Shown here: in pieces, positions 22,346 to 57,870 of the stretch
Layout: every line of letters starts with the position of its first letter
Position numbering within the stretch: the stretch's first letter is position 1
Origin: Octopus vulgaris
Lineage: Eukaryota
Reading direction: 5' to 3'
Length of the DNA: 64,000 nt
NCBI GenBank assembly: GCA_951406725.2
Contig: OX597815.1
Location: 97,216,001-97,280,000, forward strand
Position numbers and translations under genes: made by a program
Notes under the pieces: generated by a model
What the model was told of the DNA's origin: nothing
The model's database searches: none
What the model saw: only the letters and a program-made list of their open reading frames with translations

Positions 22346-22411
<66 letters not shown>

Positions 22412-32736: not shown

Positions 32737-32979
32737 CTCTTTTACACTCTTACTGTGGTCATGCTGGAGTGCCGCCTTTAGCCGAGCAAATCGACTATAT
32801 ATATATACATATATACGACGGGATTCTTTCAGTTTCCGTCTACCAAATACACACACAAGGATTTTGTCGGTCCGAGGCTATAGTAGTAGACACTTGCCCA
32901 AGGTGCCACGCAGTGCGACTGAACACAGAAGCATGTGGTTGGTAAGCAAGCTACTTACCACACAGCCACTCTTGCGCCT
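32737..32979 (-). mobile_element. SINE family A copy (antisense, internally deleted)
   Basis: actgtggtcatgctggagtgccgcctttag ... cagtttccgtctaccaaat ... cttaccacacagccactcttgcgcct. Confidence 0.85.
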
Positions 32980-34589: not shown

Positions 34590-35380
34590 CAGCTAAGCAG
34601 AATGTAATACTATACATGAGAAACGTTTAGTCGTCGCTATATGTAACTGAGAGTCCCGAAGGACCTACATTGCTAGAAATAAGAGCTAAAAAGTCTTAAT
34701 GGTGTAAGGAGAGCGCAATATATATACACTAACAGGAGAAGTAACCACCCCATTAAGGTCTCTAGAATCACTAGAAGAGAATATATATATACAAGATGGA
34801 GCTGAAAATAGCGCAGAGGTAAGTCTAAGACAGTTTAACTCAAGAGGGAATTTAAAAAAAAAACGATATTAACATTTATATAAATAAAATATTACCGGTT
34901 TCGTTACATCTGATCTTATCAAATATCAGTAAAACGTTATGAATAATTGAAATGTAAACATTTTATCCTCTGTCTGAGGATCAAGAACATGCCTGGAGAT
35001 TTTTCAGCATTAAGTGCTGCAGCATGCCTTTGCTGATCTTGGAAAAGTCTCGTCTACTTTCTGTATTGAGACTCCATCAGACGGGCTGCAGCGTGCCTTT
35101 CCAGGTCTTGAAATAGTCGTATCTCCTTTCTCTGTTGAGACTCTCGCCTTCGGTTTTCCACGATCCCCCTTGCTTTATACTTGTTTCTGGAGAGATATTA
35201 TCTTTTCTTTGATAGCATATTTCAATATTGCAAATATACAATTATGAGTGATGGAAAACTTATACATTCATTTCTATCTTTGCAAGCAGTTGCATGTCTT
35301 TATTTTTGTATGCAGTGTAAATAGAAGCATATGTACGAACTGCTAATTTAACGGTAAATGCTACAATAATTGATAGTTTA

Positions 35381-35881
35381 TTGCCAACTTAATGTGGCAG
35401 TCCCAGGAAAGAGAACAATGCTATTGCAATTTAGCCCTAAGAAACATCGTTTATGGTTGGCTACGTGACACAAGCGTACTGTGTCCTTACGTTTTCAAAC
35501 AAGGGTGATAAGCAACTCCACCCCAAAAGGCCAGCAACCAGAGACTAGTTTCAGGGTTGTTGTCCTTCATCATTCTGGAGTAGCTTGGCCTTGCTAGCTG
35601 TTGAAAACTTAGAATATCAAGTGGAATAAATTCACTGATCTACAAAGTTGGAAATATTGCACTTCTAAATCTCTCAGACAGAGTTGTACAGTAGGAGCAC
35701 GAACATGTGATGGCTTGTTGTCAACTTAATGTGGTAGTCCTAGGAAAGGGAATAATGCTACTGCTATTTAGCATCAAGAAACACCGTTTGTGGACTACCA
35801 CATTAAGTTGGCAACAAACCATCACTTTATCGTGCTGCTAATGTGCAACTCTCTCTGAGAGACTTAGAAATGCAATATTTC
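35381..35881 (-). mobile_element. ORF-less element: 337-bp unit with 72-bp direct repeat, 90-bp inverted repeat and an internal hammerhead
   Basis: Direct repeat 35381-35452 / 35718-35789. Inverted repeat 35651-35740 / 35792-35881. HHR at 35538-35578. (TA)n follows at ~35915. Confidence 0.7.
35538..35578 (-). ncRNA. Type I minimal hammerhead motif, C3 mutated to A
   Basis: Reverse complement reads ccaga-aTGATGA-agg(acaacaac)cct-GAAAC-ta-GTC-tctgg. Stem I is a perfect 5 bp, stem II is 3 bp, and helix III (CTAG) is palindromic. Confidence 0.7.
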
Positions 35882-35913
35882 TAAGCCACATTAATTATTA
35901 TAGATAAATGTTG

Positions 35914-35955
<42 letters not shown>

Positions 35956-36509
35956 CACATGTATTAAATGTTGATTTAAGGGTTAATTCGTAACTGTAAA
36001 AATCCTGCAACCTTGCAACTGTTGCGATAATTATTAACTGGTAATTGAGCGGTAAATGCGTATTTTTAAATATCTTGGACCTGACACCTCATTGTTTTTT
36101 GTCAAGGGTTTCACCTACAGCCGTTCGTCATGTCAGTCAACACATATATACTGATACATCATTTCGCTGTGGAGGTCATAAAGTCGGAAAGTGGCCGATC
36201 CGTAATGTTGTTCACATTAGGATCAAAATTATTCATTTATTTTAAATATAATAGAAATGAGATGAACCTAGTGTTATCACATTAGAATTCAAAGTGAAAG
36301 AAGAAAAGTGAAACAATATCATCCGTTGTCTTTAATACCGAAACAGTTTAAAAGATAGCTCCGGACCCGCATTATGTAATGGCTTGAACATTCGTTTGGA
36401 TCATGACACTCCAAGGACGCTATGCAATGCATGTGTAAAATTTGAAGGAAATGGGTTGGGTAATTCTTGAGTTTTGGGGATTCACATGGACCGACACATA
36501 TTTTCAGTG

Positions 36510-36563
<54 letters not shown>

Positions 36564-36808
36564 ATACATACAAACATACAAACATACATACATACATACA
36601 TACATACATACATACATACATACATACATACATACATGCATGCATGCATACGGTAATCACAAAAGCACACATTTATTTGCACTGACACATACACGTTGGA
36701 AATGTCTCTTTGAATCGTTAACATTTTATACACTTATAAACTCTGAATATCGACTTAAAAGTGTCTTAGAGATGGATTTTAGTCATTCCTTTTCAATTTT
36801 CATTTCAG

Positions 36809-37066
36809 TATGTCAACAAATTAAAAAAGGTGTTGCCGCGATTTTTGGACCAATATCTACTGTATCTGCTGCACACGTGCAATCAATATGTGGATCACTT
36901 CAAATTCCGAACTTACACACAGAATGGGATTCGAGGGATGTAAATGTCAGGAGTTTTTTCGCCATCAACATTTACCCCCACTACCAGACAATGGGAAGAG
37001 CTTACCTAGATCTTATCCGGTACTGGGGTTGGAGGAAGTTTGCAGTTTTATATGAAGATAATGACG
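36809..37066 (+). CDS. GRIK2-like: Internal coding exon (258 bp, phase 1-1) of a kainate-type ionotropic glutamate receptor, amino-terminal (LIVBP-like/ANF receptor) domain
   Basis: Translation (V)CQQIKKGVAAIFGPISTVSAAHVQSICGSLQIPNLHTEWD...FAINIYPHYQTMGRAYLDLIRYWGWRKFAVLYEDND(G) matches kainate-receptor ATD motifs (GVAAIFGP, VQSIC...PH, YP, DL...W). Acceptor is ttttcaattttcatttcAG ending at 36808; donor is GTAAGT at 37067. Confidence 0.93.
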
Positions 37067-40000
37067 GTAAGTAACAATTGATTTAGTTTCATTGAGTTTA
37101 TCATTTATCTGGAACAGTAAATAAGTACAGGAACAGTAAATAGCTTCGTTTCTGTCTATTTTTGTTTCGATAAGATTTATAAATAATAAGAATAAGCATA
37201 TGTTTGAGGGTGGGTGGCCTGTTATTTCAGGAGTTGGATGTTTCTTGTAGGATCATGAGGTTGATTCCTTGACCAGAAAATGCCCTATGTCACACAAGGA
37301 AACACTTCACGGTGTTTCAATCTACTTTATTAAAAATGTGTACCAGCCGAATGCTATTTGAACCCCAACGTCTTCTAGGTGTTATGTCAGATGTCGAGAC
37401 AAAATGGTGTCTATATATACTCGTTACAATATATACATCTATAATGATTAGAGAAAACATAGTACATAATATGAAGCCCTTCTCGTTTGCGAGTGACGAC
37501 TATGGTTAATGGTAAACTCGATATTTGGAAATCATTATTTAATGTAAATCGTGAAGTTTTCAAGTATATGACACAGAGGAAATAGTTTGTCAATTAATAT
37601 GGATTCTAATTATTGCAATAGGAAACTTTGAAATACAACATAGTAATTCGTTAGCAACACGTCTGATAATTAATAGATTTTATTTTCGTAATTAAAATAT
37701 TCTATTTGTTATTTTAGTAACGCAATGTGCATTATCTAAGATATTGAATCCTAATTAAATTGCTAAATTATTTCGTTCAGTTATTGATATTTATGTTTAG
37801 CATATATGAAATAGCTTTTGCTTCAGTTTGGATTCGTTTATTCTGCATTTGAAATATAACACAACAGTATATACAATTTCTTTAAAACGTATAATTTATA
37901 TTATTTGTGTTATTAGACTTAACATCTTCAGTAACAGGTCGTATAATCTATAGCATTTGTCATACAATTAATCACGTAGACTTCTACATAGGTATATAAT
38001 GTAGGATTCTTGTCCAGCACGTGAAGAAATACCACTGAATAAGTGAAACGTTTTCACGCTACAGATCTTTTACTTCCTTTCAATTATTCTCTTTTGCACA
38101 AGCTGTTTCAACAGCAGAATTGATCATTTTTTACTAAGAGTTACGATGCCTTCCAGCCATCTTTGTTTTAGTAATCCTCAAACACAATTCTGAACTAATT
38201 ATCCGTTATTTGTATGCGCTTTCTTTCTGCAATCTTCAAACTGGATAGTCAATCATCTCGCATTTTCTTTTGAATTGTTGTTTATATTGTTTGATCTATT
38301 CAATTTGTTACTCCCAGGGTAAAATATTACAAAAAGTGAAGGTAAGATAAAAGATAAACTTGTGCATCGAATTACACAAAAGAAAGCAATTCTCTGAGAT
38401 AGCTCTTGGTGTTTAGTATTTTATATCCAATATAAACTCGCTGTGCATTGTTACAATATCTATTGGAAGTAAGCACATGAAAAGCAAGCTGCAAAGTGGA
38501 TCGTGCTAGCTATCGAAAACATACCTTAATTATTCTTTGCTCAATAACATGGTGAAAACAATCTTTTAAATACAAGATATTTCGAATAGCATTCTTGCTT
38601 TGAACTAGTTTCTATTGTGACCTCTGAAATGACAATAACGTAACGTTGGGAAAATATCAATGGGTGTTTATATATAATGTACTGATAATAGAATGCATTT
38701 GACATAAACTAAACTGCAGCCTTCTGTGTTTATCAACTCGGTAGTATTTTACATTTGTTTGGAATAATCTCCACGTAAATATTCACTGCGACAAACAAAA
38801 AGACGACTGAAAATAATTTGTTTAAGCTTCTGAATGTTCTAACCGTAATTGAAGCGGAGAATAAATGTGCAAATTAGCTCCTGAATGATTTCTTAATTCA
38901 GCAGTAGAAGTAAAAAAAGAAAGAAAAAAAAAGATTTTCATGAAACTGGCATTAATGTTTATATATAGCAGCATTCGTCTAATTTGTTGGCATCAATTGT
39001 TGAATATTGAATTCAATGACATTCAATGTATATTGCAGTAAATTACGAGAAATTTTCTGCTGGTTATTCCAAACCATGTTGAATCAAATAACTTATTAAC
39101 ATTCTTCTATACCCATCTGTTGCTGAAGTCTGAGACAATTACATGAAGTCCTTCTTCATAATTAGGTTTGAAATGAAGCTAACATGCTATATTGATGCGT
39201 TGATGTTCCTGGTTTAATCTGCGTCGAATTAGTATACGAGATGACTCGTAGTTATCGCTGCATTATTTCCCTGAAATAATGTGAAATACCATGTATTTAA
39301 CAAAATTATTATCAGTGCTTACTTTTCTTCGCCACAGTAAATGTTTGCATGAAAGTCGTTTCAAATTGTTTCAGAGTGAAGGAAAAACCTCCGAATTGTT
39401 GAATAGAAATATTTGCAATTGATTTTGTATACCCTTCATTTTATAATTAGTTCATTACATAGGGAATCATTTATTGATGTTTTCCTGCCGTTGGGTTATT
39501 GGCATTCCATCGACTATTTATGACTCTTTCAGGGATATTGGAATTGAAAGGAAAGTGTAAAACTTACAAGGGAAAACTGAATGTAGAACATCCATAACCC
39601 AGTAAAATTTGTTTTATCTATAATACTCCTACGCAATGTGTACTCCAACACTTTAAAAAGCATTTGTTTTAATAAATTAAACATAACTACATGGGCATAT
39701 CTTAATAACACCATTTTTCCGGACACTTAGATGCACTTTCTGCACATTCTCATACTGTACATTCTCAAGTGTACTTTTGGATTATTTCGGAAGAAACGAT
39801 ACCTACTCTTCCCGTTTCACCCTCTCCCTCTATCTACCTATTTACCTATCCATCTATCTAGCAATCTCTCTAACATCTACATATCTCCTTTCACATCTCT
39901 CTCTCCATCTCCCTTCATATATATACGCACACTCGCAGAGACATATGCATATTCAATTGGTCCCTGAATGCAAATAATTCCTCAAATGCTTACTCAAAAA

Positions 40001-40901
40001 CCACACGGAATAGTTTACAGTGTATGAGAGCATATGGCCTGATGATATATTCGGTCAATCGATGTTTAATCAGAAGAAATAATATATTGGAATTGAATTA
40101 ATCTACTTTGTCCATTTGTTCTGTTGTCCAAGTGTTAATTGATTTCGAGGATAATATTAGCTAGTCCCAAGCAGAGTGGACGAACTAACCCAGTATTTTA
40201 ATTATTTTTTCAAAACAACTTATTTGATGAAATACAGGATTATCTGACACGAGTATACAATCAATAGTTCTTAAGCCATATGTAAATCATTGAAAACTTA
40301 AATTTCATGGACTTTATCAACAAGGCTGGGGCATTTATTAGTTATCAGTTTTTTTTTAATACAGATTGATTTTAAATAATGTAAAACAATGTTAGGGAAC
40401 ACTAACGTGTTTTATCTAATTGCTTTTAATTTCAACCGAAGAGTAAATAGCTTTAGCTTCAAACCCGTTTCATTCGGGCATGTTATATTTGACTGTTTAT
40501 TTATCAATCAATACGTTTAGAACAAGATAATGAAGTTGGCATCTAAACACAGACAGGATCTAAATGTTTTGCCAATAACGGTCTAATCAATAAAACAGGT
40601 CAAGTGTAGGATGGAAAAATGGAAAAATGCTCGGTTATGAATTCCATTCAATTGGTTATGTACTCCGAAATTATAGAAACTCGAACAGTATCATGTATTA
40701 AAAGAAGACTCAAATTGAAAGTAGTTTTCCACTTTTTGGTTTCGCATTGCAGAAATAATTAAAAATGACTTGTATTCAAAGCCTTATGATATGAAGACAT
40801 ACATGCACACATGCAGACACAAACACAAACGCACGCACATATACACAAATACACATACACACAAACACACACAGACACATACACTTATTTATGTGTATAT
40901 A

Positions 40902-40940
<39 letters not shown>

Positions 40941-40944
<4 letters not shown>

Positions 40945-41099
40945 GCAGGACTGGCTGCGTTGTATGTACTTTGCTCACCAACCAGATGGTTCCGGGTTCA
41001 GTTCCACTGCGTGGCATCTTGGACAAGTGTCTTCTACTATAGCCTCTGGCCTCCAATGCTTTGTGAGTGGATTTGGTAGACAGAAACTGGAAGCCCTTC

Positions 41100-41178
<79 letters not shown>

Positions 41179-41430
41179 TGTGTGTGTGTATGTGTGTCTG
41201 TATGTCTGTGTCTGTATATATTTGCGTGTTTGTATTTTTGCCCCTATCATCGCTTGACAAGTGTTGTTGGTGTGTGTACATCCCCCGTAACTTAGTGGTT
41301 CGGCAAAACATACCGATACAATAAGTACTAGGCTTACAAAGAATAAGTCCTCTAGTCGATTTGTTCAACTAAAGAAAGTGATCCAGCATGGCCGCCGTCA
41401 AATGACTGAAAGAAACAGAAGAATAAAAGA
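40941..41430 (+). mobile_element. tRNA-derived SINE family A (internal TA/TG microsatellite), full length
   Basis: Head ...tggttccgggttcagttccactgcgtggc; body ggatttggtagacagaaactg; tail ccagcatggccgccgtcaaatgactgaaa...gaataaaaga. Homologous to the copies at 63575-63945, 31293-31611 and 32737-32979. Confidence 0.85.
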
Positions 41431-43990
41431 ATATATACATACGTATATAGATACATACATTATATATACGATTGATCTTTCGTTTAAAAATTCATATAAA
41501 CACGCAAATAAATGTCTACTCATAGACACATGTCTGCGAGTGTATGAGAAGTTGCGAGTGTATGAGAAATATTAGAAGTTGTATATACACATGCGTTTGT
41601 ATAGGACATATATATATACATATATATATATATGTGTGTGTGTGTGTGAGTGTGTGTGTGTGTGTGAGTGTGTGTGTGTGTGTGAGTGTGTGTGTATCTG
41701 AAGGCATATAATGCGTCATAGTAGACACACACACACACACACGATAGATACACGCAAGCGAGAACAGACACGTATATAAAGAAACTGATCATATTTCATG
41801 CTTAATTACAGTGCTTTACGCTAGAAACATTGAATGTATTCGCTGATGTGTATATGACTGCGTGTGAGTGTGAGTTTTAAATGAGATAGTAAGCATAACA
41901 AGAGAGAGAGAGAGAGAGAGAAAGAGACAGAGATAGAGAAGTAGGTGTAGCAGAGAAATTCACGTACATGTACATGCTCATGCATATGTGTTTGTGTCTA
42001 AATGTTAATGGCTTATTTCATATTTGAAATATTATTTGAGATGTGAATACTTAGGTCTTGGACAACGCTAGGTTTGCTCTAATGGTGGAATGTTTCTTTT
42101 ATTTTTCTCCTCCCTTTCTCTGTAATAAACATCGTCTTGTTTCAAAATGCTTTAACTCTCCTATCATTTCCAAGCAGTTAGTCATGTATGCTGTAATCCA
42201 TGAATGCTATGCTATTATAGCGGGGTTTATCTGTACGTTTAGTCATTCTTTAAAAGGCTGTGTTAGCATCCGTTTTTTTCTTTGTGTCGCTCCTGAACAC
42301 AGTTCATTCTATTGAAGAGATTTTGCTAACCTGAAGCCACTGATGCATTAGATGTGGTTAGGTCATCCAAACTGACGATAGAGATGTATGCTTTCAACAA
42401 TAAGGAAAAAAGCCTTTTTCTGTGACTCCGTGTTTTGCGATGTAATCGTGTTAACCTACTTTAGAATATTTCATATTCCATATGAAAGAATTTTGAATAA
42501 ACTCAACTATTAGAGATTATTAATGCTATTAGGAGCCCAAATTCACATTAGCTTGTTCAAAAATTTTGCATAAACAAAACAAGCTTTCATCTTTGGATGT
42601 TGTTCTTTGACTTAAAATACAAAAATATTTTCCCAACTGACTTATTGGTTAACATTAATTACAAGCTGTTGGTTGTTTTCAGTATGCCCCAGAAGAAACA
42701 AAAAATTACACTCTATCTCATAGAATTGATTACCCTAAGTTGTGGTTGAGATTAATTTGAGTTGTACAGTATAAGTAGACAATATATACAATTGAAACAA
42801 AAAGAATATTGGGCATGTAATGTGCAAACTTAATATTTGTGTTGACATTTACAATCGTATTTCCTTCACAAAAGGTTTCATAGGTGTTAAACAGCGGGAA
42901 TTAATCGTTCAGATGTATTGCTGAGAATGTCACAACTTCTACACAAGTTTGATTCTCGCTGGCGATACGGGATGCTTATTATTCTTGTTTACATTTACTA
43001 GCGTGGTAGAATCGTTGACCCGATGGTTGCTGAGGTATGAGGAAATATCTGTCATCAAGGCTACAATTAACAGGCGAAGCTATTGTTAGACTGTCAAGTT
43101 AGATTAGAACTTCTACCATGATTTTTAGGGTACAATTCATAACTTAAAAGCCTACGGACGCAATTTTCTATTCATTGCAATGTATGGAAGTTTAGTCATC
43201 TCCTCAGAGATAAATCAGTATGTCGTCTTCTGTGGAGTTTATCACAAAGAGTAGTTGCGCGCGTGAAATTCATGAAGGTGGATTTTTGTTTAAAATATAC
43301 AATGTTTTATTGAATATAATATTTGTTCTGTCCTGGAGTCATTCAACGTTACAGCAAACTAAAGTAGAATTTAACAAACATATTAACATAAAAATTTACC
43401 CTTCCAGTGAAAATCTATCCTAACGTATTGGCTGTAAAACCCATGAAATTTTTTGAGAAACTAGTAGATTGTGAGAGTGAATCTATAAACTTATTCGTAG
43501 TGGAAAAGAGTGAAGAGAGAGAGATTCGGAAAGGAGAGCCTTAGTAAATTAACATGAAAATTAAACTAAAATACGATCGATATTTTCTAGCTTCTTTAAT
43601 TTTAACAATGATGAAAAAGGAAAGAGATATAGTAATGAATTGGGGGAAAGTCGTTCAGGTGTTGAGATTGTCATTCTGGGAGACAGTTCAATAATCTCTG
43701 TAAATGCAATAAAACCGTCTTAATGGCTAAATACTTTGTATTTTCGTTATTGGATTAGCGAAACAATTATGAGAACAGAACAAAGAGATAAGCCTACATT
43801 TCCCGAGAATTACCGGGTACGTCAGCTAGTATATATATATATATGTATATTTCGTATATTTCCATTTGTCTTGCACATTTTTACATTTTGGCGTTTAGCT
43901 GAGACTTTTCTTCGTGATAATGTCAATTTGAACATCTATGTTTAGCATACTAGGTGTCCACCTTATTGGCCATTCCTCTCCTCTTAATTT

Positions 43991-43993
<3 letters not shown>

Positions 43994-44049
<56 letters not shown>

Positions 44050-44134
44050 ATATATATATATATGTATATATATATGTGTGTATATATAAGTGTGTAAATA
44101 TATGTATATATATATATATGTATATATATATATG

Positions 44135-44205
<71 letters not shown>
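43994..44205. repeat. (TA)n-rich microsatellite, one of many in the window (e.g. 5648-5717, 19015-19097, 28810-28906, 36510-36553)
   Basis: Direct inspection. Confidence 0.95.
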
Positions 44206-44214
<9 letters not shown>

Positions 44215-44394
44215 CATGTATAAAAAATATATATAAAAATACAAAATGGGACAAGAACGCAAAACATTAAAATAGAGGACAAAAAAAACGGACGGGTCAT
44301 TCGAAGCCTCTAATCTTCTGTCAAGAACCGGATCATCCTCGTAATTTCGGCTGATCATACGTATATATGTGTGTACGTATGTTTAGATGTATGC

Positions 44395-44458
<64 letters not shown>

Positions 44459-44461
44459 ACA

Positions 44462-45069
44462 TAATAAGGGTGAGAAAATTGGATACTAATTTAATAGTAC
44501 CATCAATTTAACACCAAGTGGCTTAGTGCATAAAAACCAGGAATACAATAAATTTTATACATAAATATAAGAGAGTGACCGCTATGTGATCGACTCTAGC
44601 ACTAAAGATAGATCCGCTAGTTTTCAGCCACGAAGCATTGTTTCCGATGAAAGTTAGCACAACTATTAGCGTTAACGAAGAGGGCAAATAAAAAATAACA
44701 AAAATGCAGATTAATTCAGGACAATTGTTTCATTATTAATAAATTATGTAATTTTACTCACGTAACATATCTGTAGCTCCTCGGCCGAATTTGTCTAGAA
44801 TACAATTTACTCAACCGCATGCCAGATTTTAGCATAACGATAAACAGACATGCGGGTCAGTCGATTGCATTCGCCGTTATAATTCAAGTGTCCCCGCCAA
44901 AGTCCGCCAAAATTCTCGGAAACAGATACTACATCAAAAATTAAATGTAGTATAATTACAATCAACTAATAAGGGTGAGAAAATTGGATACTAATTTAAT
45001 AGTACCATCAATTTAACACCAAGTGGCTTAGTGCATAGAAACCAGGAATGCAATAAATTTTATACGTAA

Positions 45070-45074
<5 letters not shown>
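44462..45074 (-). mobile_element. ORF-less element: 505-bp unit with ~108-bp terminal direct repeat and an internal hammerhead, in (TA)n
   Basis: 44462-44569 matches 44967-45074 with few mismatches. The terminus aataagggtgagaaaattggata...caccaagtggcttag resembles 55772-55818. Confidence 0.7.
44714..44790 (-). ncRNA. Degenerate type I minimal hammerhead motif
   Basis: Reverse complement reads attcgg-CCGAGGA-[long irregular stem II]-GAAAC-aatt-GTC-ctgaat. Stem I pairs with one G-U, loop III is palindromic, and the core has U4>C. Confidence 0.55.
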
Positions 45075-45116
<42 letters not shown>

Positions 45117-45847
45117 TACATATATATACATCCAAATATATATATATGTGTGTGTGTATGTGTGTATGCGTATGTGTGCATGTATGTGTCTGTGAGCGTG
45201 TACGTATTTGTGTGTGTGTGTCTTAAAATGAAGTTGTTTATTTAAAGCAAATTTAAGAATAACTGCAAGATGTTTATGAACGTGGTATTATACAGTATTA
45301 AAAAGGTCAAATAAAATGTTTGGTTTACGATCCTTACATTGACAATCCCAATGAGGATGGATTTTGCCGCTTCATCCGATTAAATGACAACAGTATTGCA
45401 AAATACCTTATATATGGCAAGCGGCATTATGAAAGTAGAAATGCGAGAAGGCGATTGCTTCTGTTTAAGAAGTTGAAAGCGAAAGTGACAAATATTCCCA
45501 CAGAAACATTTGAAACACTTCACTGAAAAGCAATGAATGAAGATTAACTTGAAATAAAGCACTAAACAATTATGAATTCAGCGGTTTATGTCATCTCAAA
45601 GATTTCTGAGCGAACAAAAGACTCGAGCTAACATACCACTCGCTTTCTATGGTAACCCTCTCTCATGTCCAGGCTTTGAACCTGACTCTAAATCATTAGC
45701 TGGATTAAAGTCTCATAAGAGACACAGATAGCAGATCTCTAAAGATGATTGCTGGATCTCCGTTTGTTGAAAATGGCAGGATACATCACACCAACACACG
45801 CACACACACACGCATACACATACACACACGCATGCACACACACACAA

Positions 45848-45878
<31 letters not shown>

Positions 45879-45893
45879 CTCGCTCTGAGATTT

Positions 45894-45935
<42 letters not shown>

Positions 45936-48900
45936 AATGCCTCTTGTTCAGTAATATGCTCGTATTAAAGTTACAAAACATTCACAAAACTTAGTGTTTC
46001 ACTTTCCAGTTCGTCAGACAGGTGTAATTAATACTCATTACAGCTGCCCGACTAACGGGAATGTGACATTCTATACGTCTCTAAGCCGTAATAATATTTG
46101 CATGCCACCTGATGTTTAATGCATAATATTTCTTATGTTTGATGACTGTGAACTTTTAGCAACTTCTTTTCATGCAGTTTTAATTTATCTTTCATTAAAA
46201 TTCTGGTAATCTTTCGGGGGCTGCTAGCTTAGGGAGGGTTTGTTGCACATATATAGAAAGCACTCATTGCAGGTTAACTATGAATGTAAATACGACATTC
46301 TATTGATCTGTGAAAAATTGACATGCGTGACCTCTAGTGGATTTTTCACGGTTTGTTGATCACTCTTCACGCTTTCGCTAATAGAGTAGATAAGGAATAT
46401 ATAAAGCAGTCGTAATGTGGCCTAATTTCCATAATTTTGTTTATAATGCTTCATATTTCAGTAAACTGTCCCCATAGAATCCAGAAGATGTTTACTTGTA
46501 ATTACTATATCTTTTGTAAACAGATCGAAAGACAATATCGAAATGTAAACGAGCATTGCTTGAAGGGACATGCCAGTATTTGATGGGATATAAGATCAGA
46601 AATGAATGAAGGGTTTTCTTGGAATGAATCACATGCTTTATGCAAGTGCGTTTGGAGGACGAATAGAGATCTTTCTGATTTTACTTAATATCAATCTGGT
46701 CCCAGTTTAGATGTGCGCTTGTACAAATTGTATGACGGAAGTACGGCACTGACATTTATTCCCTCTATATGCGCGAGTGTTTGTTTGTGTGTGTATGTGT
46801 ATATGAGGGTTTCTTTACACATGTGTGAGAAATATAGAAGCAAGAATCAAACAGTGGCGTTTCTTTTCCCTTATACATTTTAAATGCTATTTCAAATGCA
46901 GCTTGGTTTCCAGTGATTAACTCCTTCCAATACTGAGAGCATTTCTATTGCATTTTTCTGTACAACTTGAATAGGTCGAATTGTGACCCGATATTAACGC
47001 AGCTGGACTGAAGGAACTGTTATATGTCTCTAGATTTTTGCATTCAGCGTGTCTATTGCCCCTTAAAATCTGATGAAATGAAAAAAAAAGGAGGATACTT
47101 ACATAAACATCTAAACAATTACACTAAATATAGTCGACAAAAGTATAACAGCACATCTTGATCATTATATCTCTTTTATTGTTTCTGCCCTCAGCGCCTT
47201 ATAACTCTACTGCAACAGCATCTGCTGCTGTACCTAAGACAGCTAACGTTTTTGCCAAAGTGTATACCCCTTCGCATTTTAATAGGTCATGACTTGATTG
47301 AGAAATTCTCCCCTTATACGTGTTCCAATATATACGTTCACATAGCTCAATAACTGTATCGATCCAGCAAACCAGTAGTGCTTACAAAAGCCATGCATAT
47401 TGACTCCTAAAAGCAAGAGGAACATTTTATCACTATTTCATGTCTTCATATTTTGGACTTTGGCCAATTATTTTATACCAGCTGTAGCATTATCTCTACT
47501 GAATACCTCTGTGATCATTTACTAACACAACACCACTGACCTAGTGTTGTTAGCTTATGCATATACATCCTAAAATAGACAATTGTTGTTTGTGAGTCAA
47601 TGGATATACTTGAGAATTTTATGTTAGAATAGATCCTGTTTTACACAAAGTTCTTTTGATCGCTTACTTGAAAGTAAAAATACACAAATATAAATATAAA
47701 TCAATTATTTATCATTAAGATTATATATATCGTTACTACAGATGGAAGAATTGTTGAAAAATCCAAAATAGATATAACACTGGAATTCCTTATGATGATT
47801 AGAGTAGGGGTGTCAGAGTTTATTTATATATTCATTTATTTTGTTGTCGGTATTAATAAATGTACTTTCTGTTATGCTATGTATGCTAGAAACCTCTATG
47901 TCGACAGTAGATTTGCTAGTTATATCTCTTATTTTGTCATCTTTATTATAAGCCTGTTGCGAGTTTTCAAACTGGTTATCCCAACAACGAATTCTACTTA
48001 AATTTTTTTCAACTTCTGTATGTAGTCATCATTCATACCTATCCTAGAGATTCAGCCGACAAAACGTATTTTTCTTAGTTAATATTGGTATTTTGCTAAT
48101 ATCACAAAACAGAGCAATTATCACGAATGTAGTTTCTACGAATTCACTCGTATATTCAAAAATTTATAACCGAGCAATGTTTCTCATGGTAATCGCTTCT
48201 ATACTATTGAAATAAGGTAGGACGCAAGTGGAATTATGTGTTTATTTGGACCTTAGCGACAACATAACTAACTCTCTGATATATTTCAGTCTCAGTAAGT
48301 TATGAACGGTACCAAACACAGAAACACAATTTTCAACACTTGAACTGCGCAAGTTATTCTCAAACTATAACAAGCAATAAATATATATTTATATACAAGC
48401 AACAATGAAGTTAGCAGTTGCATATATATACGTGTTTCTCTTTCTGTATGAAGGATCTCACTTTGCTAATAAGTTAGCTTGGATGAATATGATGCAAGTT
48501 CATAAAGCGTTTATTTTCAAATAAGAACACGGGTTCATTTCAGAATCATTTTAAAATTCCGTTTATCTGCATTTTGTAGCAACACACTGAAAGTGTTATC
48601 ATACTTCTTGTATGATATAACATTTTTCAGAAAGATTGTGTGTTGTACTTCAAAGAGATACTATCATTTGTAAAAACACAGTAATAACTGCATACTTTAT
48701 TAAAGGGCAAACAGTTCCGGATATTGACTTTAAGTAGGTATTAGAAAGGTCACGCTCCGATATCATTGGGCCAGTTTCTTCTGTTTTAATTTTCCGGCAA
48801 CATTATATACATACTTATTGCTAACTAAACGATTAAATATTCTACTGTTACCAGAAAATAATATGACACTCTATTTGTAATTTAACGTGTTAGACAAAGA

Positions 48901-51299
48901 CACGCTTTTAAATCGATAAGCAATTAAAAAATAACGACATATAAATCTATATCTTATTTCAAGAAAATAAATGAAATATTTTTAACGAAGGTTTGAAAGT
49001 TTTTCTACGTAGCTCTAGAGAAGGCCTCAGATCAACTTAACCATTGCGTTCCAATTTCATATGTAATACCGCATGCTAACTGGGAAGATAATGACTTGTA
49101 CAGTGTTCATGCTTTTCTCAAATTTATTTCTATTAAAGATTAAGCCAAGTGAATATATTCTGAATCAACAGATGTAGAATATACAAAGATACGCTAATTG
49201 GGAATCAAATAGAGTTATGCGACACACTATCCTCAGAACAAGATGTTTTTATCGGTCTGTATGCAATTCAGAAATGCAATAAACACGTTTTTGGTAATTG
49301 TATTTATCTATTTGTTAAACGATACAGACAAAAATACAAACTTGTTTAATCCCATAACATTATGTAATGTTAACAGTACAGTGACATTACAGAATAAAAT
49401 TGTGTTAAGTTTGCTGAAAAATGTAACATGTTTTTAGAAACTTCTAATTGTTGTTAAACAAATGTTATTATTAAACAAAATATTACTAAATTATCAACAT
49501 TTTTCGTCTTAGAATTGTGTAACATCTACCTGCACTTAAAGGATGAAGGAAATTATGCTAAATAAAGCAAGTTCTTTCAGGAAATTATTGTATTTTAAAG
49601 TTAAGGTTGTTTATCTGTGTTCCAGTGCGTAATTCATTCACAAAATAGATTATTTTCCATCTAGTCACCTGAAAATCTTTGAACGCTGCACATTTTCTAC
49701 GCAGAGAGACACGCGCTGACATGCATACGCACGTAGACACATGTATAAAGATATATGTGTACATGGTTATTATGTGATATATGGATGTACATTCATATGT
49801 ATGCACATATATGTGTGTGTGTATGTGTGTATGCACGCGCTTCTGTGTGTGTGTGTACGTATGTATGAGTGTGTGTTGCAGAGTATACCTGTGCTGTCTT
49901 CATGCACACGCTCGCACACCCATACGCATTCCCCTCCCATTAAAACTCGCATAATTTATTTGGAGCAAATATTTTCTGATAAAATCATTTTGGACAACAA
50001 TGTTGTCATGTAAAATGCTGACAAATAATTCAGCATTTTCTTCGATAACCTATTAAGACTAAGTGTTTAGTTTGCAATTGTCGTTTTGTTTGTAAATATT
50101 TTCGTCCATACTTTAAAATTCTGTTAACGTGTGTTTGGGTTTAGTTTCTATTTAATTTATATTTATTTCTCATCGAAACACTCAATAACGCAGTAGGCGT
50201 TTAAGTTTTGAAATCTGCATTAAAGATGTATGCATTGTTTAAAAGACAATTCATTCCGAAAATCTCAGGAAATTGAATTTAAATATGTTGATACTATTAA
50301 GTAAATGAAAGAGATATATCGAGCGATTTAATTCAATTATAAAACAGGAAAAAATTGAAACCCTGTATGAATATTTTTTTTTCTTTTTGTTCATGTTGTT
50401 TATCAATGGTAATTCTAAATGTCAAAATTATAGAAACATAAATTATTTTCAGAATTATTTTGGAGCGTCGTCTGAATAATAATTGCGAATGATTGAATTC
50501 AGTTTAGTATCAGAACCTGAAGTCCATATTCATGTAGATTAACGGCATTTTATTATGACCGGTGCTATTACTTTTCTTACGTTCTAACTCGTTGTGAAAA
50601 TACGCACAAAATTAGTTTTAATACCCATTTGAGTAACTTCATCTCCTTTAAAATTCATATCTACCTTTTTAGATTGGCTTCAATATCTTTTTGCGAACGT
50701 CTTCTTGAAAATTATACATACCCTTCTAATACTATCTGTGAACATTGAGATTAATGATTGCTTATCAAACACATAAAGAAGACTTGTGTATTAAGATATT
50801 AGTTTATCCTTTCGTGCACACACACATTGGTTTGTACTTTTCAAATATGAAACATTATTGCACAATCATACATATGAAGGTTAGTAATTATACAGAGAAT
50901 AACAACATTTTCTGAATAGTTATAATTACGCCAAATTGTAAACCCGACCAGTGCTGAGTGTGTTAAGCATCTACTTATTTTTAAGCATTCGGAATAGAAA
51001 ACCAATTCTGAAGCTGCACTAAATGTTCGCTTCAAGTATTTTATGATTTATAATTTAGGTACAAACCCTGGAATTTCGCGGAAAGGATTTCATCGATGCC
51101 ATCAAACCTGTACTTGTCCAGTACATTTATTATCGACTTATAAAATATGAAAAGCACAGTTGATGTCGCAGCTGCATTTGGACTTCAAACGTAGAACCCA
51201 AAGAAATTTCTCGGAGTATATTTCCGATGTTCTAACAATTTTCTCAATCCATTTCCCATGTCAATGACAAAACGAAATATCTCGAAAACCAGTCTAATG

Positions 51300-51810
51300 T
51301 TAATCAAAGACTCTTTTGGGAATACAAGCCAGCATTTAAGAACTGGCTTTACAGCATATATCGTAGCTCATCTCGGCATAGATTCTTATTTTTTTCTAAA
51401 TCTTGATTTGTGTTGTTTTGTTTTACTGGTGTTCACATTTAATATTTTCTTCGAAATTGGCTGATAGTAGTAAAGTATATTCAGTAGCAAAGGCAAACTA
51501 ATTCATAATTCAAAACATAAAAATTGTGATAATTCAAGTTCTGGTTCGGCTTAAAATAAGTAGAGATAAAATCGAGTACTAAATCGAGGAAATTTATGAT
51601 TGTGCCGCCATTTCCAAAACAAATATAGAATTTTATATTTCTTAAGAACTTATGTAGTTTCTTTGCTACTGCTGAGGAAGAAGAAAAAGGATTATAAATA
51701 GCTAGTATTGCGTCATTGTTGGACAAGCTTACCCTAATTTTGATATAAAACCATCAGGTTGGTAATTTAGTTAGAGACAGGTTGAAACATTATAATGCTA
51801 AAATCGTGGG
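51300..51810 (-). mobile_element. Penelope-like reverse transcriptase remnant
   Basis: Minus ORF 51481-51726 reads NNDAILAI...KKLHKFL...IINFLDLVLD...YFKPNQNLNY, resembling the PLE RT stretch YRDD..LA...NFLD.TLD..KPN. Upstream ITNLMVLY resembles the EICELVGLY motif. Confidence 0.5.
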
Positions 51811-53187
51811 TAAGTGTATGTGTTTTAAATTATGCTCTATTTAAAGAGTCAAATATCTATGATGGGGTTGCTCTAATATGGCATGTAACGTTGGGAATAT
51901 ACTTTTGCAACTTAGGGTAAGATAATATTACAATAATTATTTAATTCCATTTCGGTTTACAAATTTCTTTTCATTCATGTGATACAAAATATTCAAATAA
52001 ATGCTAACTTTGCACACTTATTAAATTATCATGAAATAAATAAAACAAATTTCTCATGTATCTTTGCAAAAAGTGTGGTTAGCTATAGAATAATATAACA
52101 TTATCTAATTATACGATCTAATTACACTACTTTAACTATTAATAACAAAAGTACAGTAACGTTCAGATAATATTATTTTCAAGGCGAAAATATTGACTTG
52201 TCTTTTGAATCACTTTCCAAAATAAAACAAAAACATACTGAAATTATAATTAATATACCTAGATTGTTTAAACTGATGTTGCCTCTCTATGACAAGTATG
52301 TTTCCATCTTCCTCATTTGTACGTCACGTAAAAGTATAGAAATTATAAAAAAAGCTTTTGTATTCTGGTAAAAAAAATAAACTACGGTATATTATGAAAA
52401 GTGTTGGTAAGTGAAAGTATTTGTAGCAGAGATACAAAAGAGGGAATGAGAGTTTTAAGAGAAGGTGACGAATGTAGAGGATGTGGTTATTTGTTGCAGT
52501 TGTAAGACTAGTTACAGTGAGAGATAATGCTGTGTAGTAACAATAGAAGGCAGTTTATGATCATGTATTCAGTATGCTAATTTGTGTAAATGTATATTTC
52601 ATTTAAGAAATGAATAACTTCGCGCTAACTTTCTTATTAAATGCTTTTTAAACTTCCGCACAAGTCATATATTTCAAAATTTAAACAAGAATGCTCAGAA
52701 CTTCGTTACTTTACTAAAGTTTCAAAACATTACTGGACTCAATATCAAAATGGTATTAGATAGATAAGGTCATGTTGTTCATAGTTTTTGGTGTAGGTTA
52801 AAAATGATTACGAGGATGCAGTTATTATTAGGATGTTATATAGGACCAGGGATATAGGATTGATTTCAAAAATTATACATCGATTACGACCTGGTAGTTT
52901 TCAATATTTTGCTGGTAGTGTATCTGTGTGTCAAATTTTTGCATGTATTTTGCTAAAAAATAAATTTAAATTCGCACATGATTATTTCGTTAGTAAATAA
53001 ACGGTTAATTCATCATGCTTCTCGTAAAATTTTCCTCTCTGTACACATTCACGTACGCACGCACTCCCTCTCTTCCCCTTACACACATCATGCACGCACA
53101 GACACATACACACGCCACATACACACACACACACTCTTTCTCTCTCTCACTCAAACATTCAAACTCTCTTCCCCATATATAACTTCC

Positions 53188-53230
<43 letters not shown>

Positions 53231-54099
53231 CTGTAAACTATGAAGAAGAAAGATAAACCTGGATTGGTGAGGTCGGGTAGCGGTGAAATGACTTTGAGAA
53301 ACCTAGTTGGTTGATTGTCCGACCGATAAATCACACAGTCGATTAGTTAAGTGGTTCAAACCTTGACTTATTCACTAATACTAATAATGAAAATGAAATA
53401 GAATGAGCGCATGTATTTATTATTGGTATTGTGACACACCTAAGATACAACAAAATCCATTTCAAAACATGATTTCTTGAAAACCTAATGCAAAAATCAA
53501 AATGGTTAGATGAAAGATTGCCTCATATGTACAGAAAATAAACGTAAACGATGAAAAATTAAAAACGTACTACATTCGTCTGAAATTCGGAAAAACCCAA
53601 TTGAACATCAAGTAAACATACCGAAATTATACAAATAAGTATTTCTTTTCGGGCAATGGAAGTCTTTTGTCTTCGCTATCGTATCTAATGATGAATTGAA
53701 ATATGGATGTTTAGCAGATGCTACAAATGGAAAATGTTGTTGATTTTTGTCTTCATATGAGACTAAATTGCTTAAACTTTCACAGCACATACTTAGCTGT
53801 GATCAGATAGCAGTTTTGAATTTCGAACTAAATTCCATTTTTCTTGTATAAAGAATGTTGAACTTGAATTATTCCGTCACTGGATACCGTTAGTGAAAAA
53901 AATATAGAATCTGATAAAGATGACAATAGAAATTTGTGTGAAAGTTACATACAATGATAAAATGCAGTAACATACTTAATACTCATACCAAGCTAAATTT
54001 ACAAAAAATGAAGAATTATCGTACGATATTATATATTGTAAAATAGATAAGAGCAGCCTGTTATTATTACAGACAATGATTAAGAAAAAATATAACATT

Positions 54100-54970
54100 T
54101 AGATAATTGCAAATTCCTGATAAATATGAAAAATAACAGTGCTCACCTACAAAAATTAACTTAACAAATTGCTAAAACTAACATTCGAGTATTATCTATG
54201 ATTTTCCGGTACACAAAGCGGGCGTATATGAAATACACTATTAAGTCGCGCACACCAAATAACTCTCCATCACAAAATAAACAATAAAGCAACACAAAGA
54301 AAGCCTAGATTACTTCACAAATATATCGCAAAACGTTACAGCATATTCTCATTTGTAGAATTGCGACAAATTCTACGGTAACATAGCTAACGGAGAAGAC
54401 AAACATCGCACGCAATATTTCTAAAAAACAGGTATGTTGACATATTTATTGTGACATATATGGATGAACAAGCATAAATTTGAATCATAGCACCATCACA
54501 AACTTTAGAAAAAAATATATATATAGAAATAATAAGCAATATATACAAGCCAGATGACACAACGCAAATAACTTTTTTTATATATACAAAGGTATTGTGT
54601 TTATTACTATAGATAATTAAGCGCTGTAGTGAAATTACTTCGACAAGATTTTCGTGTTTTTCTACGAAAGAAACTTGGAATAAGGAAACTCTAGAAGTGA
54701 GGAATATATTCGTTAATAATAGATAGCTGAATAGTTTCGTAGACACAAGCATAGAAATAAACCAGAACAAATTCTCTCATTCTTATACAACAGATGAAGC
54801 AACCATTAAAATACACTCACTACAAATTTAACATATAGTACAGCGTGAATGAGTTTGTCATTAAAAAGATCTTTGAATAAAAAAAAATTGTACTTGACAC
54901 CATAATATAAACCCATTGTGAGATGATATCAAGCACAAGGAATGAAAGATTTAAAGATCAATACAAAGTC
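54100..54970 (+). mobile_element. Penelope-like reverse transcriptase remnant, just upstream of the hammerhead cluster
   Basis: RYVDIFIV at 54430-54453 (RYVDDIFI with one Asp codon missing), followed by NIYKPDDT and RFSCFSTKETWNKETLEVRNIFVNNR*LNSFVDTSI (resembles the PLE thumb motif ..NNGYP..F.D). Heavily decayed. Confidence 0.55.
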
Positions 54971-55481
54971 ACTGAAAAATAAAAGCAAATACATTACAAA
55001 TACACACAAACACACATTCGTGCATTTGTACGCAGCAAACAGAACTGCACACGTATTTGCATACACAAACACAAGCACACGTACTCTCTCTCTCTCTATC
55101 TCTCTCTTTCACAGGCCTTGCTTCTTTCAGCTTCCAAATCCCTTCAAAGGCCTACCAGGCACCAAATCGCCACTAGCTTCTTGTCCAACCATTCAGTACA
55201 AAAAAGTTAATTTCTAATACATTTGGTATCACCGAAGTGGCAATATCATTTCTAACAACAGCATGTGAGTCCTTAGCGAATAGCAGCCCATTATTCAATA
55301 ACTATATGGTACTTGTTATATTTTTCCATTCAGTGATCTAAGATTCAAGTAGATGGGTTTCTGTAAGAAGCCTGCGACACCCTTCGTCGCATGGAGCCGA
55401 ATCAAACTTTTTAAACTATAATATATGTAACTCTTTTACTAAAAGAGTTGAGTGACCATTTACCTGCGTTTGACCACCGAC

Positions 55482-55534
<53 letters not shown>

Positions 55535-55616
55535 GGTCCCGGGTTGAGTCGGGGTTAACCACAGTAAATAAGGTACTCAATACATAGCAGAGTAAATTAA
55601 TTTATTTTATAGAAGG

Positions 55617-55667
55617 AGCTTCTACAGGACTAGAACTGTTTCATTCAAAAGAAATCATCAGGAAGCT
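55617..55667 (-). ncRNA. Type I hammerhead ribozyme motif, mirror copy in the palindrome, intact core
   Basis: Reverse complement reads agcttc-CTGATGA-tttcttttgaat-GAAA-CAGttctagtcCTG-TA-gaagct. Confidence 0.8.
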
Positions 55668-55714
55668 TCCTGATGATTTCATTTGAATGAAACAGTTCTA
55701 GTCCTGTAGAAGCT
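55664..55714 (+). ncRNA. Type I hammerhead ribozyme motif with intact core
   Basis: agcttc-CTGATGA-t-ttc(attt)gaa-t-GAAA-CAG(ttctagtc)CTG-TA^gaagct. Stem I is agcttc/gaagct (6 bp), stem III is CAG/CTG, the triplet is GUA, and cleavage is predicted after 55708. Confidence 0.8.
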
Positions 55715-55729
55715 CCTTCTATAAAATAA

Positions 55730-55769
<40 letters not shown>

Positions 55770-56027
55770 TGAATAAGGGTAGAAATTGATATTAATCAAT
55801 AACAACCAGTGGCCTATCATATTAAAAAAATCCGAAGATTAAAATATTTTTCACATACAAAATTTAAAGGACTGACCACTAAAAGTGGACACACAATATG
55901 ACAGATATAGACGTCATAATCGCTATTTTCCACGAAGAAAGTGTTCTCAAGAAAAATACTCAGCACGAAACCAAAGTGTAAAAAATAATCAAGACAAATG
56001 AAAGTATACAAAATAAAAAACGATGAC

Positions 56028-56102
56028 CTATGTACTAATTAGTTTCACTTGTTAATATTCACGTATATGTATACGCGAAAATCTGCAAGATCATCAGCAT
56101 AG
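56028..56102 (-). ncRNA. Type I minimal (PLE-type) hammerhead ribozyme with extended stem II
   Basis: Reverse complement reads ctatg-CTGATGA-tcttg...caagt-GAAAC-taatta-GTA-catag. Stem I ctatg/catag is perfect and loop III (TAATTA) is palindromic. Confidence 0.8.
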
Positions 56103-56376
56103 TCTGTCGGATTTTTTTAATATGCTAGGCCACTGGTTTTAATCGATTAATATCAATTTCTACCCTTATTCAATTTTAAATAATAAAAAAAATGTTCTCT
56201 AAAGGTAAATTGAATGCTGCAATTTATTAACTGCAGAGTAGATTTTCGATCTCAGCGCGCCAAAATGAAGGCATTTGAAAGATACACATAATTATGATTT
56301 GTTGAACTCTATGCATGTGGGATTCCGGTCATGCGTTATGTATCTGGTTCTGGAAATTATGTTTGTAAACGACAGA

Positions 56377-56451
56377 CTGTGCTGATGATCTTGCAGATTT
56401 TCGCGTATATATATACGTGAATATTAACAAGTGAAGCTAATTAGTACATAG
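56377..56451 (+). ncRNA. Inverted copy of the 56028-56102 hammerhead with a core mutation (GAAA>GAAG)
   Basis: ctgtg-CTGATGA-tcttg...caagt-GAAGC-taatta-GTA-catag. Confidence 0.65.
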
Positions 56452-56675
56452 GTAATCGTTTTTTATTTCCTATATTTTCATTTGTCTTGATTATTTTTTA
56501 CACTTTGGTTTTGTGCTGAGTTTTTTCTTGAGAACACATTCTTCGTGGAAAATAGCGATTTTGACGTCTATGTCTAGCATATTGAGTGTCCACTTTTAGT
56601 GGTCAGTCCTTTAAATTCTGTATGCAAAAAATATATATAAATATATATATATACATGCATGCATACATACATACG

Positions 56676-56713
<38 letters not shown>

Positions 56714-57655
56714 TGATATATGCACGTTTATGCTGACACATAAACGCGTACGCGCGCACACACGCACTCATAGATATGCATTCCTCGTTCGTATAATTCC
56801 GTTAGGTATTGCTTCACTAGCATTTCCTGAATTGCGTTACAATGTTAATCTAGGACAAATAATGAAAATTTTTATTTGAATGACTTTTCTCGTTGCATGT
56901 AATGCAACTACTCGTCCGTTCTAGAATAGGACTTTCCATGTAGGGGCTATATCGTTACGAGTTACGTGAGGGAAGTTCTAGAAGTAAGCGGCCATTATCT
57001 GCTTAGAAACAGCGAGTAGAGAATACATAAAAATTGACTGGAATCCCGATGTGATGACCGAGGTACGGCAATGATTATGATACTGTCGGTGTTTGTTGGA
57101 AATTTTCCATATGCTGTGTGTACATCCTTATCTACATATGCAAATATAAATGTGTGTCACAATCTTGCATTTGTGAGGCAATAGAATTTGAAGAGCTATG
57201 ATTATGATGACGTATACTAAGGTTCCTGGCTATACATTACTCCAGAATATTCTAAGTGAACCTAATAATTAATTTCTTTGGAAACATTCAAATAAAAGAC
57301 GCATGCCCCTCTAACTGCTACCCTTTTTATAAGGAAGATAATCATTCCCGCTATAATATGAAGTAGAATTCGACATTTCAGTTAGAAATTTAAATATTGC
57401 TGGGAAAAGAATGTATACACTTCGTATATCTATTTATTTTTATTTACTACGAGGTTCTAAAAATTTCTCACGAAGAAAATATTCTGGACAAATTTGAAGA
57501 AACATCAATCAAGCAAAATTCAGGTGAGTGATGTTTAAGAAGAGGTGTGGAAAATTTCACAGGATGTTTACGCGATAAGGATGTTTATTATAGATACTCA
57601 GTAAATGATAAAAATTAGGTATATTTTTATAAACTTAATATTGTTTTGTGTTTAT

Positions 57656-57870
57656 AAGGCAGCGAGCTGGTACAATCGTTAGCACGTAGGGGGAACTGCT
57701 TAGCAGCATCCCGTCCGTCTTCATGTTCTGAGTTGATATTCCTGCGAGGTCAACTTTGCCTTTAATCTCTTTCGGGGTCGATTCAATAATTACCAGTTGA
57801 GCACTGGAGTCGACGTAATCGACTTATCCCCTGCCCGAAATTGTTGGCCTTGTGCCAATAATTTGAAATC
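57656..57870 (+). mobile_element. SINE family B copy (monomeric)
   Basis: aaggcagcgagctggtacaatcgttagc ... gaggtcaactttgcctttaatctctttcggggtcgat ... ggccttgtgcc. Confidence 0.8.

Follow-up and report, generated by a model that had tools for sequence, protein, structure and literature searches.

Short hammerhead-bearing repeats at (TA)n tracts of the Octopus vulgaris genome: probable non-autonomous Penelope-like elements

A 64,000 nt stretch of the Octopus vulgaris genome (assembly GCA_951406725.2, contig OX597815.1, nt 97,216,001–97,280,000 of the forward strand; here called the window and numbered from its first base) carries four short repeat elements, A to D, each with at least one type I hammerhead ribozyme motif. 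Elements B and D, together with a third, truncated copy (D2), probably represent a single lineage of repeats without open reading frames (ORFs) that end in (TA)n microsatellites and are likely to be non-autonomous Penelope-like elements (PLEs). The coordinates of these features are given in Table 1. A single exon of a kainate-2-like ionotropic glutamate receptor gene (36770–37070, + strand; 95% identical to an Octopus sinensis protein) is found in the window, which likely places A in the intron 5′ of this exon and the other three elements in the one 3′ of it. In the host pre-mRNA, C would form a near-perfect hairpin of 64 bp (55600–55731) and D one of 266 bp (55844–56634); such hairpins would mask the hammerheads, and could be substrates for adenosine-to-inosine editing.

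Table 1. Positions of the elements, hammerhead motifs, predicted helices and decayed coding region in the window.
Feature	Position (nt)	Strand	Description
Element A	35368–35884	−	old insertion; 337 nt ORF-less unit; 86 nt partial tandem; inverted arm 35792–35884 (+); not TA-anchored
Hammerhead of A	35538–35578	−	core at 35573; 5 bp stem I, C3A core, 3 bp stem II, GAAA, CTAG palindrome, GUC site (H17 at 35543)
D2	43848–43995	+	third family D copy; 5′-truncated, body only, ~70% identical; (TA)n on both sides
Element B	44462–45074	−	505 nt ORF-less unit with a 108 nt tail duplication (1.2 units); flanked on each side by (TA)n; homologue of D
Predicted long-range helix in B	44639–44924	−	44868–44924 with 44639–44708; encloses hammerhead; homologous to D helix
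Hammerhead of B	44713–44791	−	core at 44784; 7 bp stem I, U4C core, long weak stem II, GAAA, CAATTG, GUC site (H17 at 44720)
Element C	55533–55735		two inverted, 5′-truncated, hammerhead-bearing arms (55600–55731, 98.5%) flanked by tracts of (TA)n; family of very high copy
One-sided tail of C	55533–55599	−	67 nt; at 55600, other members of the family end in (TA)n
Hammerhead of C, mirror copy	core at 55661	−	
Hammerhead of C, + arm	55664–55714	+	core at 55670; 6 bp stem I, intact core, U.U-based stem II, 4 bp hairpin III, GUA site (H17 at 55708)
Element D, inverted arm	55768–56109	−	5′-truncated; intact hammerhead, body, 76 nt tail ending at (TA)n
Hammerhead of D, inverted arm	core at 56097	−	intact; H17 at 56033
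Element D, direct arm	56107–56634	+	partial tail 56107–56182, spacer 56183–56376, hammerhead, body ending at (TA)n; unit ~536 nt
Predicted long-range helix in D	56251–56520	+	56251–56280 with 56476–56520
Hammerhead of D, direct arm	core at 56382	+	H17 at 56446; GAAG at this locus, GAAA in family
GIY-YIG endonuclease region	30519–30930	+	decayed, broken over three frames; likely Hydra-clade PLE

Comparison of each element with itself revealed partial tandem duplications in A (86 nt at 83%, period 337), B (108 nt at 97%, period 505) and D (68 nt), and inverted copies in A, C (132 nt at 98.5%) and D (266 nt at 93%), with 67 and 76 extra bases on one side of C and D, respectively. Duplications of this kind had been described for all four elements in a first-pass annotation made from the sequence alone, and were confirmed. 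Partial tandems, inverted 5′-truncated copies and one-sided tails are the signature of PLE insertion (PMC8557442; here and below, published systems are described from the accessible portions of the works cited). The tail is optional (67 nt in C, 76–84 nt in D), both ends being found before (TA)n, and in PLEs it corresponds to what lies between two internal sites at which the reverse transcriptase (RT) starts (PMC11167929). The units are short and low in GC (A, 337 nt, GC 0.42; B, 505 nt, GC 0.35; D, ~536 nt, GC 0.32; all below 45%), and in B and D follow the order tail-spacer-hammerhead-body-tail. Their non-coding nature, also noted at first pass, is upheld for A, B and D, where the longest ATG-initiated ORFs are 38, 41 and 29 aa and an ORF encoding RT plus GIY-YIG endonuclease is absent from the units. 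Element A is an older insertion (83% between its duplicates) that has lost any TA flank it had, and has the same unit design as B and D. Element C shows an insertion signature like that of B and D, with only the 3′ 135 nt present, and whether it is the truncated end of a longer element is about an even call. The inverted arms of C and D start 4–12 nt upstream of the hammerhead core, on the 5′ strand of stem I (55664–55670; 56097–56109), and the centre of the C fold-back is the AGCT palindrome of that strand; these starts may mark RT stalling or a transcript start.

Six type I motifs, all of them within A, B, C and D, were found when all 64 kb were searched on both strands with a relaxed descriptor (no more than one mismatch in the core, and at least 5 bp in stem I) that was blind to TA. 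The type I hammerhead has the core CUGANGA...GAAA...UH, with stems I to III. This core is intact in both motifs of C and in the inverted arm of D, and carries one change each in A (C3A), B (U4C) and the direct arm of D (A15.1G). The four motifs of A, B and both arms of D have a palindromic helix III of at least 4 nt, compared to a mean of 0.07 such motifs in 30 block-wise dinucleotide shuffles, or 0.23 when all palindromic motifs were counted (again four observed). This control covered the palindromic class; the two motifs of C come from the hairpin class, where part III is a true hairpin rather than a palindrome alone, and the cleavage triplet is GUA. The initial proposal of a type I hammerhead in every element, mostly with palindromic helix III, is therefore sustained by motif numbers far above those of shuffles, with the reservations that three of the six carry a core mutation and that C does not share the palindrome. 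A strict descriptor found no motif with an exact core and one, that of A, at one mismatch, missing five of the six, and no hammerhead family was among the best 150 of 243 matches of an Rfam cmscan search. None of the six has the G10.1–C11.1 pair at the base of stem II; its place is taken by U.U in C and D, A-U in A and G.U in B. The U.U is also present in the axolotl hammerhead HHR_Amex2, which cleaves (PMC7229834), and in three of the six hammerheads compared from PLEs of the Hydra clade, all six of which have, as in C and D, a 4 bp stem III.

At least part of the C and D region is present in 20 of 24 listed public runs, across 10 studies. Contigs of four runs (X1 and X9 from organism A, X3 from organism B and X7 from organism D) were compared with nt 54900–57000 at 80% likeness. 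In X1, summed contig depth, which overcounts and is not a copy number, was 661,000–852,000 over C, 19,000–41,000 over the D spacer and 393,000 over the D tail, or ~13,000–17,000, 400–800 and ~8,000 times that of the flank (flank depth ~50 in X1, 21–36 in X3 and 5 in X7). It follows that the C and D families have hundreds to thousands of copies, and the outcome that had been named beforehand as fatal, single-copy elements, is contradicted by depths hundreds to tens of thousands of times that of the flank.

A consensus without a conserved core had been named as equally damaging. Among the best 40 of 166 variant positions, a G to A change at 56436 restores GAAA in 97–100% of the depth in all four runs, showing that A15.1G is specific to this copy of D; the family keeps the core, as does C. 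Two further stem changes are found among the same 40: at 56379, G to A converts a G.U pair of stem I to A-U, and 56402 (C to T) with 56419 (G to A) constitutes a two-sided change of one stem II pair, the majority state in all four runs (56402 at only 74% in X9). Among the best 24 of 973 loose contig ends, the four runs have at least 30, 28, 22 and 6 contigs that exit into (TA)n at 56182 and then continue into mixed sequence, and X3 has at least 17 that exit into (TA)n at 55600. Tail and spacer are joined by contigs 13–18% diverged in X1, X3, X7 and X9, spacer and hammerhead by such contigs in X3, and hammerhead and body in X1, X3 and X7, so the ORF-less unit of ~536 nt is a trait of the D family and not an accident of this locus. 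Other copies of C run on upstream of stem I (loose ends at 55664) into at least two different sequences that are absent from the window, and C may represent no more than the 3′ terminus of something longer. With one of these extensions (X7, X9), stem I could continue beyond an internal loop, and a TATA-like word lies ~30 nt ahead of the core. Run X9, which is RNA only by guess, covers C and D and not the flanks, a pattern that low-coverage DNA would also give, and is therefore given no weight as regards expression. No exact match to motifs of C or D was found in viral contigs, metagenome contigs or GTDB genomes.

Judged by alignment against 300 shuffles, B and D are homologous in the hammerhead (z 4.2), body (z 5.1) and tail (z 4.0), compared to z 2.7 for the bodies of A and B and at most 0.5 for the other three control pairs, so that what had been listed as four elements of different sequence amounts to three families. 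Of the ten ends of A, B, C, D and D2, eight are at most 10 nt from a (TA)6 or longer tract, as are 1.6% of non-TA positions in the window, which has 50 (TA)n tracts in all; the two misses are the ends of A, 548 and 32 nt away. In reading this figure, C and D share one (TA)n tract, and the elements were first picked partly for their TA flanks and then re-found by the TA-blind descriptor. Anchoring in (TA)n, proposed originally for all four, thus applies to B, C and D (and D2), well beyond the background of the window, and not to A.

A highly self-paired monomer is predicted for B and D. Folded as circles, they reach z −6.3 and z −3.6 against shuffles, while scores for 22 random 505-mers drawn from the window span −2.3 to +2.1. 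A helix between spacer and body, with the hammerhead enclosed by it, would be common to both: B retains seven of nine core pairs in the alignment, one of them through a change on both sides, and the next eight pairs fall in a gap of the alignment. In D, the family letter at 56265 closes the sole mismatch among 17 pairs tested in this helix, and the predicted minimum free energy (MFE) fold forms the hammerhead stems.

The coding remnants in the window are all decayed bystanders. A 62 aa piece (30571–30756) of the region at 30.5–30.9 kb matched atlas clusters at 0.94–0.95, one of them named GIY-YIG (21% of members with the Pfam family), which provides a lead; a comparison with five candidates matched none of them. 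Two other regions (51.3–51.8 and 54.1–55.0 kb) resemble, by eye, the thumb of a PLE RT and were confirmed by no tool: a Pfam search of nine frames for PLE remnants had no relevant match, the 51.5–51.75 kb frame had no usable atlas match, and the 54.4–54.8 kb frame matched none of 51 candidates and nothing in PDB, with three weak multi-stretch matches. Among the coding remnants (RT or GIY-YIG) reported at first pass, only that at 30.5–30.9 kb can be regarded as supported. Spread over its three frames, CxCX5C-like, CxxC and CxH-like motifs of Hydra endonucleases are recognisable by eye (compared with PMC8557442), and it is likely a relative of a possible partner enzyme for the elements, not the partner itself.

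The evidence makes it probable that B, D and D2 form one lineage of ORF-less hammerhead repeats of 505–540 nt ending in (TA)n. They are likely non-autonomous PLEs, likely copied by a Hydra-type PLE RT and endonuclease from RNA longer than one unit, itself likely a hammerhead-processed circle. Copies end in (TA)n at two positions ~76–108 nt apart, the order tail-spacer-hammerhead-body recurs in diverged copies, and the family keeps its core. In the proposed course of events, a source locus with two hammerheads would be transcribed, and its RNA cleaved and ligated. A PLE endonuclease would nick (TA)n, and reverse transcription would begin at either of two internal sites, leaving the optional tail. 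The RT would then pass the hammerhead site for up to 1.2 turns, as in B, or halt early and fold back, as in C and D. Insertion in (TA)n is nearly universal among Hydra PLEs, which carry hammerheads (PMC8557442) and occur in Octopus, so the copying enzyme would most likely be of this clade; octopus Naiads also favour (TA)n (PMC8557442), which reduces the assignment to a lean. By analogy with the hammerhead-made circle proposed for PLEs (PMC4209133) and with retrozyme RNAs, which have been shown as circles (PMC7229834), we lean to a circular template.

Several observations weigh against this interpretation. Element A is not in (TA)n, folds like its own shuffles (z −0.4), and the evidence for it is confined to this window. 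The spacers of B and D are weakly alike (z 1.6), the MFE fold of B does not form the hammerhead, and no copy in the window has two tandem hammerheads. The contig comparison took in C and D only, under three species labels, and contigs by their nature cannot show cleavage ends or circles. The tails (67–108 nt) are longer than the 30–40 nt described. Three 14 nt motifs of the elements had no matches in the Craig supplement (PMC8557442) as available, and the 3′ end of Hydra-1_Obim shows, by eye, no likeness beyond the hammerhead layout. A GTATTGAG-type motif that the C tail has in common with the 3′ end of a Hydra element was discounted as a probable coincidence. Eight of nine Xenopus retrozyme dimers did not cleave (bioRxiv 10.64898/2026.07.22.740005), and an Anolis PLE inserted mainly uncleaved RNA in vitro, where its hammerhead was dispensable, with no RNA-seq reads ending at the site (PMC11167929).

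The Anolis results also speak for a different template, in which the same non-autonomous PLE derivatives would be copied from uncleaved linear transcripts of more than one unit, the hammerhead being an inherited passenger or acting elsewhere. The single hammerhead per strand in every copy of the window fits such a template, as does the poor cleavage reported for metazoan PLE hammerheads (PMC4209133). A passenger is harder to reconcile with family D, which keeps its core and, apparently by compensation, both stems; B starts and ends on the same 108 nt tail, a structure given directly by a circle or multimer, and similar short repeats yield abundant circles in mussel, coral and axolotl (PMC7229834). 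We regard the linear template as a serious but less likely alternative.

That the elements are merely the 5′-truncated 3′ ends (pseudo-long terminal repeats, pLTRs) of ordinary autonomous PLEs, without any ORF-less replicon, is improbable for the set as a whole. Most PLE hammerheads are indeed found alone, or as nearby inverted pairs left by truncated copies (PMC4209133), Hydra hammerheads lie near the 3′ end as in C, and decayed PLE coding pieces are present within the window. For C alone, which stops at stem I where other copies continue upstream, truncation is as good an account as any other. For B and D it is distinctly disfavoured: in these, as in A, the tail is followed by a 130–200 nt non-coding spacer and then the hammerhead, with ORFs of at most 41 aa, the D junction recurs in diverged contigs of all four runs, and the spacer is predicted to pair with the body. 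Local accidents at unstable (TA)n (slippage, fold-back or mis-assembly) with chance hammerhead matches are very improbable and are rejected at the family level, since, for all the 50 (TA)n tracts, the near-perfect inverted pieces without hammerhead (e.g., 22178–22499) and the lack of any contig spanning C or D whole in the four runs, the motif counts exceed those of shuffles, in four public runs the families show high depth, (TA)n ends that recur and a core that is restored, and the arms differ by 1.5–17%, unlike an assembly mirror.

The design of these elements has already been described (PMC8557442, PMC4209133, PMC7229834, bioRxiv 10.64898/2026.07.22.740005). Non-LTR retrozymes (PMC7229834; bioRxiv 10.64898/2026.07.22.740005) are likewise short, ORF-less, low-GC units of high copy with one type I hammerhead, a self-paired fold (here in B and D) and a proposed mobilisation by PLEs; animal retrozymes have been argued to be non-autonomous PLE sequences (bioRxiv 10.64898/2026.07.22.740005). 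Their size is given as 170–400 nt in PMC7229834, which the 505–540 nt of B and D exceed, and 51–972 nt in bioRxiv 10.64898/2026.07.22.740005, a range that includes them. In contrast to tandem dimers or multimers, the octopus copies are of 1.2 units, truncated or inverted, and carry a PLE tail and (TA)n ends. A retrozyme has been defined as a tandem of at least two units, each with a hammerhead (bioRxiv 10.64898/2026.07.22.740005). No copy in the window has this structure, and circles and cleavage are predicted only, so A to D are filed as retrozyme-like non-autonomous PLEs and not as retrozymes.

Hydra-clade PLEs, including Hydra-1_Obim of Octopus bimaculoides (PMC8557442), share the (TA)n target, the hammerhead near the 3′ end and the partial tandem and inverted structures, and the endonuclease remnant of the window is Hydra-like. 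They differ in encoding RT and GIY-YIG within ~2–2.7 kb, where A, B and D encode nothing, and no terminal sequence common to both was found with the three 14 nt motifs or by eye at the Hydra-1_Obim ends. Non-autonomous Chlamys PLEs such as MRC1 (PMC8557442) are also ORF-less PLE derivatives with pLTR-like partial tandems and microsatellite insertion, but they are green algal, mostly without hammerhead, and target (CA)n or (C)n; the 3′ similarity to an autonomous partner established for them is not so for the octopus elements. Poseidon PAc of Anolis (PMC11167929), the element of the in vitro work above, has an AT-rich target and two 3′ ends set apart by an optional tail downstream of the hammerhead, but is autonomous, with an ORF starting in the hammerhead and a tail of 30–40 nt.

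Literature searches found no account of these octopus families, most subscription papers, Repbase, Dfam and the bioRxiv supplements being outside their scope. Cephalopods are untreated in the searched text of PMC7229834 and bioRxiv 10.64898/2026.07.22.740005. An annotation of O. vulgaris lists 190 PLE families making up 6.83% of the genome (PMC13282606), and the words hammerhead, ribozyme and retrozyme are absent from its supplement as available. Families this abundant are probably already in repeat libraries under some name, which makes it unlikely that they were overlooked by repeat annotation, as had been suggested. The idea of a diverse cephalopod radiation of PLE-mobilised, retrozyme-like elements can be kept as regards the PLE footprint, (TA)n and multiple copies, and needs trimming as regards diversity, with three families, weaker evidence for A, and C possibly a PLE 3′ end. 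The combination of PLE mobilisation, TA preference, multiple copies and conserved core applies to C and D, and to B through its homology with D; A, without TA anchoring, falls outside it.

The class is thus known, the octopus families are new examples of it, and their value is as such and as a test system. Neither the mode of movement of animal retrozymes nor the role of hammerheads in PLEs is settled, and mobilisation of retrozymes by PLEs has so far been proposed from co-occurrence and pLTR similarity. The octopus families are abundant, young enough to retain both priming ends, and have hammerheads of Hydra-like build, making them good test material. The most specific version of the proposal would have B and D as cephalopod hammerhead RNA circles of 505–540 nt, copied into (TA)n by a Hydra-clade PLE enzyme, with DNA copies in which every part of the PLE footprint is preserved (two sites of priming, read-through of the ribozyme junction for 1.2 turns, and fold-back arms stopping at stem I). 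This version is tentative and, in all its particulars, rather unlikely; if true, it would provide evidence, directly from the genome, that PLEs use retrozyme circles as templates, and would name the partner clade.

Other repeats are scattered through the window. A TA-flanked repeat just left of B (44238–44360) is 68% like an inverted counterpart at 712–833, and the hammerhead descriptors found no motif there. The region 22133–22499 is an almost perfect inverted repeat (142 nt, 99%); it has (TA)n inside, a 31 nt tandem at its edge and no hammerhead, and is read as a recent fold-back or an assembly artefact. Between (TATAA)n and AT-rich repeats, nt 19355–19560 form a 207 nt imperfect palindrome (85%) that by eye resembles a miniature inverted-repeat transposable element. 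A dispersed family with members 68–80% alike (29690–29893, 31293–31612, 32749–32979, 40945–41441 and 63575–63956) has, by eye, the look of short interspersed elements. Open frames at 7320–8063 (− strand), 11571–12703, 15038–15642 and 27243–27695 (all + strand) resemble, by eye, relics of a mariner transposase and RTE-, R4/Dong- and Tx1-type long interspersed elements. Finally, a 166 nt unit is repeated 2.5 times in tandem at 60900–61342, with relatives at 57649–57855 and 14843–15051.

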